Notes under the pieces: generated by a model
Seen by the model: only the letters and a program-made list of their open reading frames with translations
Told to the model about the DNA's origin: nothing
Database searches by the model: none
Source of the DNA: a virus
Lineage: Duplodnaviria > Heunggongvirae > Uroviricota > Caudoviricetes
Strand: one strand, 5' to 3'
Length of the DNA stretch: 28,423 nucleotides
Virus record (IMG/VR): IMGVR_UViG_2537562173_000011
Coordinates: 1-28,423 of that record
Shown: positions 8,789-8,977 of the stretch, in pieces
How the letters are laid out: each line of letters begins with the position of its first letter
Numbering within the stretch: position 1 is the first letter of the stretch
Position numbers and translations under genes: made by a program

Positions 8789-8977
8789 GTGAAGAAAAAA
8801 TTTTTAAACGTTGCAAAGTGCGCAATTTTTATATTTTTTATGACCTTTTACGGATTTAGTGCCGGAGAAGGTTTCGATCGTGATGCCAATGCATTCAGTT
8901 TCTTTTGTCTGTCTATAGTGGTCATAATTGTATGGGTGGAATTAAAGCAAACATTGTTTCATGTGCTAGGGAAATAA
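8789..8977 (+). CDS. Small hydrophobic protein (62 aa, two predicted TM segments)
   Basis: GTG start 5 nt after a perfect AAGGAGG; two hydrophobic stretches (CAIFIFFMTFYGF and FSFFCLSIVVIIVWV). Lies where P22 carries sieA. Confidence 0.4.
   Translation: MKKKFLNVAKCAIFIFFMTFYGFSAGEGFDRDANAFSFFCLSIVVIIVWVELKQTLFHVLGK

Follow-up and report, generated by a model that had tools for sequence, protein, structure and literature searches.

A conserved gene for a predicted 62-residue membrane hairpin in the sieA slot of P22-like phages

The 62-codon open reading frame (ORF) that faces gene 16 in a P22-like viral genome is a real gene under purifying selection, occupies the sieA slot at the nucleotide level, and belongs to a narrowly distributed family that is confined to a single position within a single group of phages. 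This family is already catalogued (phrog_21338), though uncharacterised. Judged by sequence and profile comparisons with types A and B, the encoded protein is not a homologue of SieA, an inner-membrane protein that keeps incoming phages from injecting their DNA (Leavitt et al., 2024; PMC10883804); we see it as a candidate for a non-homologous alternative. We analysed the gene within a window of 28,423 nucleotides, by which we mean the whole stretch of viral DNA under study, and the features discussed below are collected in Table 1.

Table 1. Features of the slot and its immediate surroundings, in positions of the window.
Feature	Position	Strand	Basis
62-codon gene, predicted two-helix membrane hairpin, phrog_21338 member	8789..8977	+	ORF list, profile match, purifying selection, AlphaFold2
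First hydrophobic helix (predicted), codons 5-23	8801..8857	+	Hydropathy, conservation, AlphaFold2
Second, more strongly hydrophobic helix (predicted), codons 34-52	8888..8944	+	Hydropathy, conservation, AlphaFold2
Conserved slot leader ATCATCTGGTATCCTGCGCAAAACTAAGGAGGTTGGTGTG, holding the Shine-Dalgarno sequence and start codon	8752..8791	+	Match to the P22 sieA leader and to other cargos
Context-specific intergenic part, common with the divergent gene 8047..8643	8614..8751	.	Upstream comparison
3' junction CCATCCATGGC, abutting the stop codon	8978..8988	+	Motif count
Homologue of gene 16, encoding an ejection protein; constant neighbour to the right of the slot	8995..10836	-	75% identity to P22 gp16

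A short gene under purifying selection

The ORF opens with GTG and closes with TAA, and its start lies 4 nt behind a Shine-Dalgarno sequence (TAAGGAGGT, 8776-8784) whose nine bases are perfectly complementary to the 3' end of 16S rRNA, which bears out the 62-aa ORF with GTG start and perfect ribosome-binding site proposed in the initial annotation. As the Serratia homologue carries an ATG at the codon matching the GTG of the window, the start codon can be regarded as fixed. No other ORF of at least 30 aa overlaps the gene, and the remaining five frames contain 2-7 stops in the window and at least two each in all homologues. With a chance background of 69 ORFs of at least 30 aa per 6.5 kb, the length of the ORF is uninformative by itself, and the case for a gene rests on conservation.

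The translated sequence is covered from its first residue to its last (1-62) by the 62 positions of the profile of phrog_21338, a family without functional annotation in PHROGs v4 (E 4.2e-45). Copies that are at least 98.8% identical are found in the Lederbergvirus phages phiv205-1, JEP4 and UPF_BP1, which leave the ORF unannotated and differ from one another in the gene to its left, and of 5,426 complete E. coli genomes 89 (∼1.6%) carry the ORF in intact form, always on the chromosome, where it may affect susceptibility to P22-like phages. Phage, RefSeq and complete E. coli records alike mostly leave it without annotation. Copies in P22-like prophages of Salmonella and Serratia also encode 62 aa, at 77-81% protein and 87-88% DNA identity, while the sequences around them (300 nt downstream and ∼114 nt upstream) are related to those of the window at chance level only (28-39%). 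No indels separate the window from these copies, and the changes fall on 10 of ∼37 synonymous and 13 of ∼146 non-synonymous sites (Fisher p = 0.006), corresponding to a dN/dS of 0.19-0.33.

When 1.84 billion cluster representatives were searched exhaustively with a profile, only 12 proteins were returned. Seven distant members, 32-53% identical and 61-66 aa long (a mis-called N-terminus being trimmed from the count), retain both the length and the two-helix hydrophobic pattern, and all seven lie on the strand opposite to a Phage_P22_gp16 gene on their contigs, at a distance of ∼20 bp or less in six cases (one of them with a slight overlap) and with one small gene in between in the seventh. In loci L137, L139/L140 and L148, and apparently also in L143, the family member is the sole gene between gp16 and the tailspike. 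Conservation in related prophages, which the initial annotation had left to be checked, therefore extends down to 32% identity, always beside gene 16. A scan of species-representative genomes found a single locus, in Serratia fonticola, and is uninformative because prophages differ among strains.

That the ORF encodes no functional protein, and is conserved by hitch-hiking with gene 16 or through an overlapping RNA or regulatory element, could be argued from the gap of just 17 bp to gene 16 and from its omission in most phage and RefSeq records. We regard this reading as close to refuted, since the ORF keeps 87-88% identity where its flanks are unalignable, is found beside at least three C-terminal types of gp16, evolves at a dN/dS of 0.2-0.33 without indels, and preserves length and hydrophobic pattern at 32-53% protein identity; nor is there an Rfam match, a search over positions 6300-9200 having yielded no RNA family and only sub-threshold noise.

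The slot beside gene 16

The product of the gene 16 homologue is 75% identical to P22 gp16 over 613 aa, its full length, and the gene converges with the 62-codon gene at a distance of 17 bp, in agreement with the opposite orientation noted initially; in P22, sieA likewise converges with gene 16, 22 bp from the gene 16 stop. Upstream of it, on the same strand, are ORFs sized and placed as homologues of genes 20 and 7, which near-identical phage records label as DNA transfer or injection proteins. Over its C-terminal 150 aa, the gp16 of the window shares 95% identity with that of a SieA-carrying phage, which makes the 62-aa gene and sieA alternatives beside the same ejection protein, and 99% identity with those of phages with two other cargos. 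A coupling between cargo and gp16 C-terminus, as for a cognate interaction, was considered and not found, the ORF occurring with at least three gp16 C-terminal types. Around residue 550, the gp16 of the window keeps the glycine matching G532 of P22 and has an alanine where P22 has P546; the P546S substitution in P22 gp16 contributes to escape from SieA (PMC10883804).

The placement in the sieA slot, which had been proposed from gene order, is borne out by the nucleotide sequence in front of the gene. The 33 bases up to and including the start codon (GGTATCCTGCGCAAAACTAAGGAGGTTGGTGTG) differ by one mismatch from those of P22 sieA, so that the Shine-Dalgarno sequence and the GTG are part of a leader of about 33-40 bp before the start codon that both genes have in common, and in contig L107 the 62-aa ORF stands behind 100 nt that are near-identical to the PsieA region of P22. 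The same leader precedes at least 12 other cargo genes, and a diverged version of it stands before the sieA of prophage HS1, which is of type B. The whole upstream region of the window recurs in E. coli SF-088 at 100% identity up to GTGAA, after which a different ORF follows (116 aa, with four hydrophobic segments). The sequence common to all upstream contexts runs from a -10-like T(A/T)TCAT to the GTG, and the hexamer at this 5' edge of the leader reads CATCAT in the window and TATCAT or TTTCAT elsewhere.

A promoter role of the leader is suggested by the annotation of P22 and by the 85 bp of upstream sequence that are enough for the function of P22 sieA. A scan for consensus sigma-70 promoters and terminators found none near the ORF or in the upstream region of the window, and any -35 or upstream promoter element would have to come from the context-specific intergenic part. 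Transcription is predicted to begin some 25-30 nt before the GTG, within GGTATCC. In other members of the family, repressor genes of mnt-like or c2-like type, which a prophage expresses, precede the ORF on its own strand. From this co-orientation, from the shared leader and PsieA context, and from its retention in Serratia, we infer that the 62-aa gene is expressed from the prophage as well.

Exchangeable cargos and a 3' junction

An exact scan of IMG/VR for the 22-mer CAAAACTAAGGAGGTTGGTGTG of the leader hit at least 119 viral stretches (loci L016-L134), and cargos were typed on the listed matches together with loci fetched earlier (n = 128 occurrences). Among the matches listed, the ORFs that start at the leader GTG form 13 cargo types, which correspond to ∼10 unrelated families by all-against-all BLASTP. 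The 62-aa ORF accounts for 20 of the occurrences listed and SieA for 10, and the cargos other than these two are either of unknown function in PHROGs or without a match. The commonest single type among the matches listed is a 129-aa signal-peptide protein (phrog_2651, 24 of 128), and the most frequent class (35 of 128) is a family made up of three types of 109, 107 and 109 aa, with an N-terminal transmembrane (TM) segment followed by a coiled coil, two of which share the C-terminal motif SWL(K/R)NVG(K/Q)IATSTRDKLNPSMDD. By hydropathy, 11 of the 13 types among the matches listed have a TM or signal-like segment; cargo t11 looks soluble and t9 stays under the threshold.

The surroundings of these cargos are constant on one side and variable on the other: a convergent gp16-like ORF of at least 150 aa ends within -4 to +60 bp in 116 of the 128 occurrences listed, and ∼10 upstream contexts combine freely with the cargos and with several gp16 types. 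SieA of type A or B is absent from the window and from all 34 loci that carry the 62-aa ORF. Earlier work describes the stretch that separates genes 16 and 9 as a fast-changing one, the "ant moron" (PMC2629481), and a region labelled sieA is among the top hypervariable regions in the accessory-gene screen of Silas et al., in whose supplements the 62-aa protein was not matched. A description of the shared leader or of the 62-aa protein was not found in the literature searched.

At the 3' side, the motif CCATCCnTGGC has a single match in the window, against 0.09 expected. In the 119 leader-bearing viral loci listed it has 34 matches, against ∼4.5 expected. All 34 share the strand of the leader, 32 are found no more than 700 nt downstream of it, and in 31 a stop codon immediately precedes the motif, which also follows the stop codons of distant family members. 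The motif looks like a cassette boundary. It further occurs between tandem cargo genes, where it is followed by GGAGGTT...ATG; loci in which it was noted are L005, L008, L014, L035, L136, L141, L143 and L145. In the Salmonella loci L008-L012, from about 8190-8234 onward, the 62-aa ORF and a CCATCCTTGGC junction are followed by a second small ORF, which starts ATGGTAACAGTCGGTTGGATTATT..., i.e., MVTVGWIIVALLVA..., and has a GGAGG Shine-Dalgarno sequence of its own, suggesting tandem small membrane cargos.

An exchangeable slot of about ten families may be of more interest than the ORF itself. With the leader as a one-line search key, CAAAACTAAGGAGGTTGGTGTG retrieves, among the matches listed, a dozen uncharacterised and likely prophage-expressed envelope proteins, and the slot becomes directly screenable. 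A bolder proposal, which we offer as speculation and consider rather doubtful as a whole, is that the sieA slot is a dedicated cassette-exchange site, delimited by the leader and CCATCCnTGGC, through which unrelated genes for envelope proteins are exchanged, at times several in tandem. Each of the ∼10 cargo families would then be a distinct exclusion or defence device directed against DNA delivery by incoming phages, and the hairpin, as the smallest, would inhibit the gp16/gp20 conduit with no more than two helices and without any relation to SieA.

Predicted membrane architecture

Kyte-Doolittle hydropathy over 19-mers peaks at residues ∼5-23 (1.68) and ∼34-52 (2.16); applied to P22 SieA, the same procedure yields three segments, agreeing with the published TMHMM prediction. 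In line with this, AlphaFold2, run on an alignment of 13 sequences, predicts a helix at residues 2-25, a turn at 26-29 and a second helix at 30-60 (mean pLDDT 86.9), so that the two hydrophobic segments of the initial annotation, for which a topology prediction had been recommended, reappear as a hairpin. The N-terminal tail MKKKFLNVAK is basic (charge +4), as is the C-terminal tail, and the ten-residue loop GEGFDRDANA is acidic (one basic and three acidic residues). Following the positive-inside rule, the hairpin would have both termini inside and a short periplasmic loop, and would probably be inserted in the inner membrane.

Conserved positions are distributed unevenly over the two helices. 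The invariant or near-invariant residues of helix 1 (K10, F14, M18 and G22) follow an i, i+4 spacing on a single face, and those of helix 2 are S37, I43, I46, I47, W49, E51 and K53, the last three within a conserved W49-x-E51-[LI]-K53 at the end of the helix. As the conserved residues run along one face per helix, they suggest specific helix packing rather than bulk membrane damage.

Two other interpretations of helix 1 were considered and set aside. It does not read as a lipoprotein signal, as a lipobox is absent and the cysteine is preceded by lysine and not conserved. A cleaved signal peptide is not favoured either: cleavage after helix 1 is possible in the copy of the window, which has a possible S-A-G|E signal-peptidase site, but this site is not conserved in distant members.

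Comparison with known exclusion proteins

SieA proteins, of which types A, B and C have been distinguished (Leavitt et al., 2024; PMC10883804), are the only characterised cargo of the slot (PMC10883804). They resemble the 62-aa protein in being encoded in the identical position, directly after gene 16 and convergent with it, between gene 16 and gene 9 of P22-like phages and prophages, behind the same 5' leader, Shine-Dalgarno sequence and GTG. Both are predicted integral membrane proteins restricted to P22-like phages, and they are mutually exclusive in the loci examined. They differ in size and architecture, SieA having 164-212 aa and 3-4 TM segments against 62 aa and two, and in the motif FxRYPxEAxxFNK, which is conserved near the C-terminus of SieA, on the predicted cytoplasmic side (PMC10883804), and absent from the 62-aa protein.

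Descent from SieA, by truncation or extreme divergence and with the mechanism inherited, would account for the common slot and leader, and the candidate was made tempting by a BLASTP alignment (E = 0.26, in a single comparison) that pairs residues 11-32 with the part of P22 SieA in which FxRYPxEAxxFNK lies. The resemblance to the motif is weak, consisting of FYGFSAGE--GFDRD in the loop between the helices, which is not conserved in distant members and is predicted to be periplasmic, whereas the SieA motif is predicted to be cytoplasmic. Profile comparisons by hhalign covered types A and B and gave probabilities of 0.33% for type A (nine sequences) and 0.53% for HS1 type B, without reproducing the BLASTP alignment. 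Together with the differences in length and number of TM segments, this disfavours a diverged SieA, which we hold to be very improbable. The negative result with Pfam says nothing on SieA because our local copy was without the SieA model PF26849.

Among minimal blockers of DNA entry, Imm of phage T4 comes closest in architecture; it is a very small protein (83 aa) with two hydrophobic segments, whose annotation has superinfecting DNA left in the periplasm. It differs in belonging to a lytic myovirus, in being expressed in early infection and not from a prophage, and in targeting T-even phages, and hhalign finds no relation (probability 0.31%). Among prophages, HK97 gp15 is reportedly a moron-encoded inner-membrane exclusion protein, and lactococcal Sie2009 is another. 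Morons of the HK97 gp15 type are independently expressed, inserted in the late (virion) operon, and block DNA entry of related phages; by description, the likeness of HK97 gp15 and Sie2009 to the 62-aa protein lies in being small membrane proteins from independently expressed morons.

Searches beyond these single comparisons returned no known exclusion or defence family. The ORF has no match at E <= 0.1 to PHROGs annotated as superinfection exclusion, matches none of the PADLOC-DB 2.0 defence profiles at E <= 1, and has no match in sequence searches of Pfam, NCBIfam and the PDB. Foldseek against BFVD gave insignificant hairpin look-alikes only (all E > 0.1), and this search is little informative because the two-helix fold is too simple.

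Possible functions

Our preferred reading, which we advance tentatively, is that of an inner-membrane hairpin with an exclusion or defence role against the delivery of incoming phage DNA. The gene would be one of many interchangeable cargos of the P22-like sieA slot, bounded on the left by the ∼40-bp leader with its -10-like edge, Shine-Dalgarno sequence and GTG, and on the right by the end of gene 16, often via the CCATCCnTGGC junction, and recombination at these boundaries would exchange the coding sequence. Expressed from the prophage, as sieA is, the 62-residue helical hairpin, with both termini in the cytoplasm and its short acidic loop in the periplasm, would exert its effect within the inner membrane, in superinfection exclusion or defence, its target being the trans-envelope DNA conduit of incoming phages (gp16/gp20) or a host membrane factor needed by the conduit.

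The model for this proposal is SieA, a blocker of injection from which phages escape by mutations in gp16 and gp20 (PMC10883804). It is favoured by the common slot and leader, by the mutual exclusion with SieA types A and B in the 34 loci, by the TM or signal segments of 11 of the 13 cargo types among the matches listed, by the conserved helix faces, and by the 62-aa gene having been kept intact in a degraded Serratia prophage with a truncated gp16. It is weakened by the lack of sequence or profile similarity to the exclusion proteins SieA and Imm and of a PADLOC match, by the absence of a consensus sigma-70 promoter upstream in the window, and by the small surface of a 62-residue hairpin relative to the multi-contact interaction implied by the genetics of SieA escape. 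Position cannot separate exclusion from other envelope functions, given the soluble-looking t11, the sub-threshold t9 and the Rap1a-family gene beside the Serratia members; as the slot cargos besides SieA are uncharacterised, it points to an "envelope protein expressed like sieA" and not specifically to a "DNA-entry blocker".

SieA is the only protein shown to block the trans-envelope DNA conduit of podoviruses (PMC10883804). Were the exclusion reading true, a non-homologous protein of 62 residues would offer a much simpler handle on the SieA-type recognition of very divergent gp16 and gp20, with few invariant residues, all open to mutation (K10, F14, M18, G22, W49, E51 and K53).

A somewhat doubtful, though still serious, alternative is a prophage-expressed small protein of the inner membrane whose role in the envelope has nothing to do with the entry of phage DNA, for example the modulation of a host transporter, sensor or secretion component, for which the small regulators MgrB and AcrZ offer a comparison, or the protection against colicins or type VI secretion system (T6SS) effectors in the sense of a lysogenic conversion. 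Among the matches listed, the slot does carry ∼10 unrelated families of envelope proteins without assigned function, and the retention in degraded prophages suggests a benefit to the host, just as the conserved helix faces suggest a specific membrane partner. The Serratia members, moreover, have a co-oriented Rap1a-family gene directly upstream, and as Rap1a is a family of T6SS immunity proteins, the slot region also carries envelope functions that are not phage-directed. A general factor of host physiology would, however, be expected to spread to other phage types and loci, whereas the family is found, over the whole range of 32-100% identity, only beside gene 16 of P22-like phages, and the sole characterised gene with the same leader is an exclusion gene.

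We consider it improbable that the protein is a membrane-damaging small toxin, whether holin-like or an effector of abortive infection, that would depolarise the membrane once triggered. In size and in having two TM segments it does resemble small holins and type I toxins, toxin-type genes (YafO family) lie nearby, and the convergence with the late operon implies that late read-through RNA would be antisense to the gene. A very strong Shine-Dalgarno sequence together with a constitutive-type leader would, on the other hand, be lethal for an unregulated toxin, and the gene is intact in the 89 of 5,426 complete E. coli genomes mentioned above. Neither an antitoxin RNA nor an Rfam match was found, the lysis cassette of the phage lies elsewhere, and the conserved residues are face-specific rather than generically hydrophobic.

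Other genes around the slot

In Serratia fonticola, the degraded prophage of loci L004/L007 has a gp16 cut to 329 aa and followed by unrelated genes; its trio of mnt, Rap1a-family gene and 62-aa ORF has stayed intact, with a 62-aa protein that does not differ from the one in the intact prophage L005.

To the left of the slot in the window, the divergent gene 8047..8643 (-) encodes a protein of 188-198 aa without assigned function (phrog_8416), with a weak ZorA-like PADLOC match (E 0.004). Directly downstream of it lies a gene for a YafO-family toxin (7588..8004, -; Pfam PF13957, E 4e-21; NCBIfam YafO), so that the phrog_8416 gene takes the place of a YafN-type antitoxin. The two genes (7588-8643), which are also found together in E. 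coli SF-088 and 19SZHZ803Rt, may form a toxin-antitoxin pair of unusual kind, or a defence pair, within the ant moron.

Between the YafO gene and the next gene to the left, positions 7567-7596 match the 3' end of the Rfam family sroH at 19.5 bits, against a gathering threshold of 80, and are most likely a bidirectional terminator hairpin. The gene beyond it encodes a ClpP-like serine protease (7003..7539, +; PF00574, E 2e-11) and overlaps, at its start, the stop codon of the Arc/Mnt-like repressor gene that precedes it (6713..7003, +). The same pair (6713-7539), in which a protease is coupled to the immI repressor, is present in SF-088 and in phiv205-1, where the protease is annotated as "head maturation protease".
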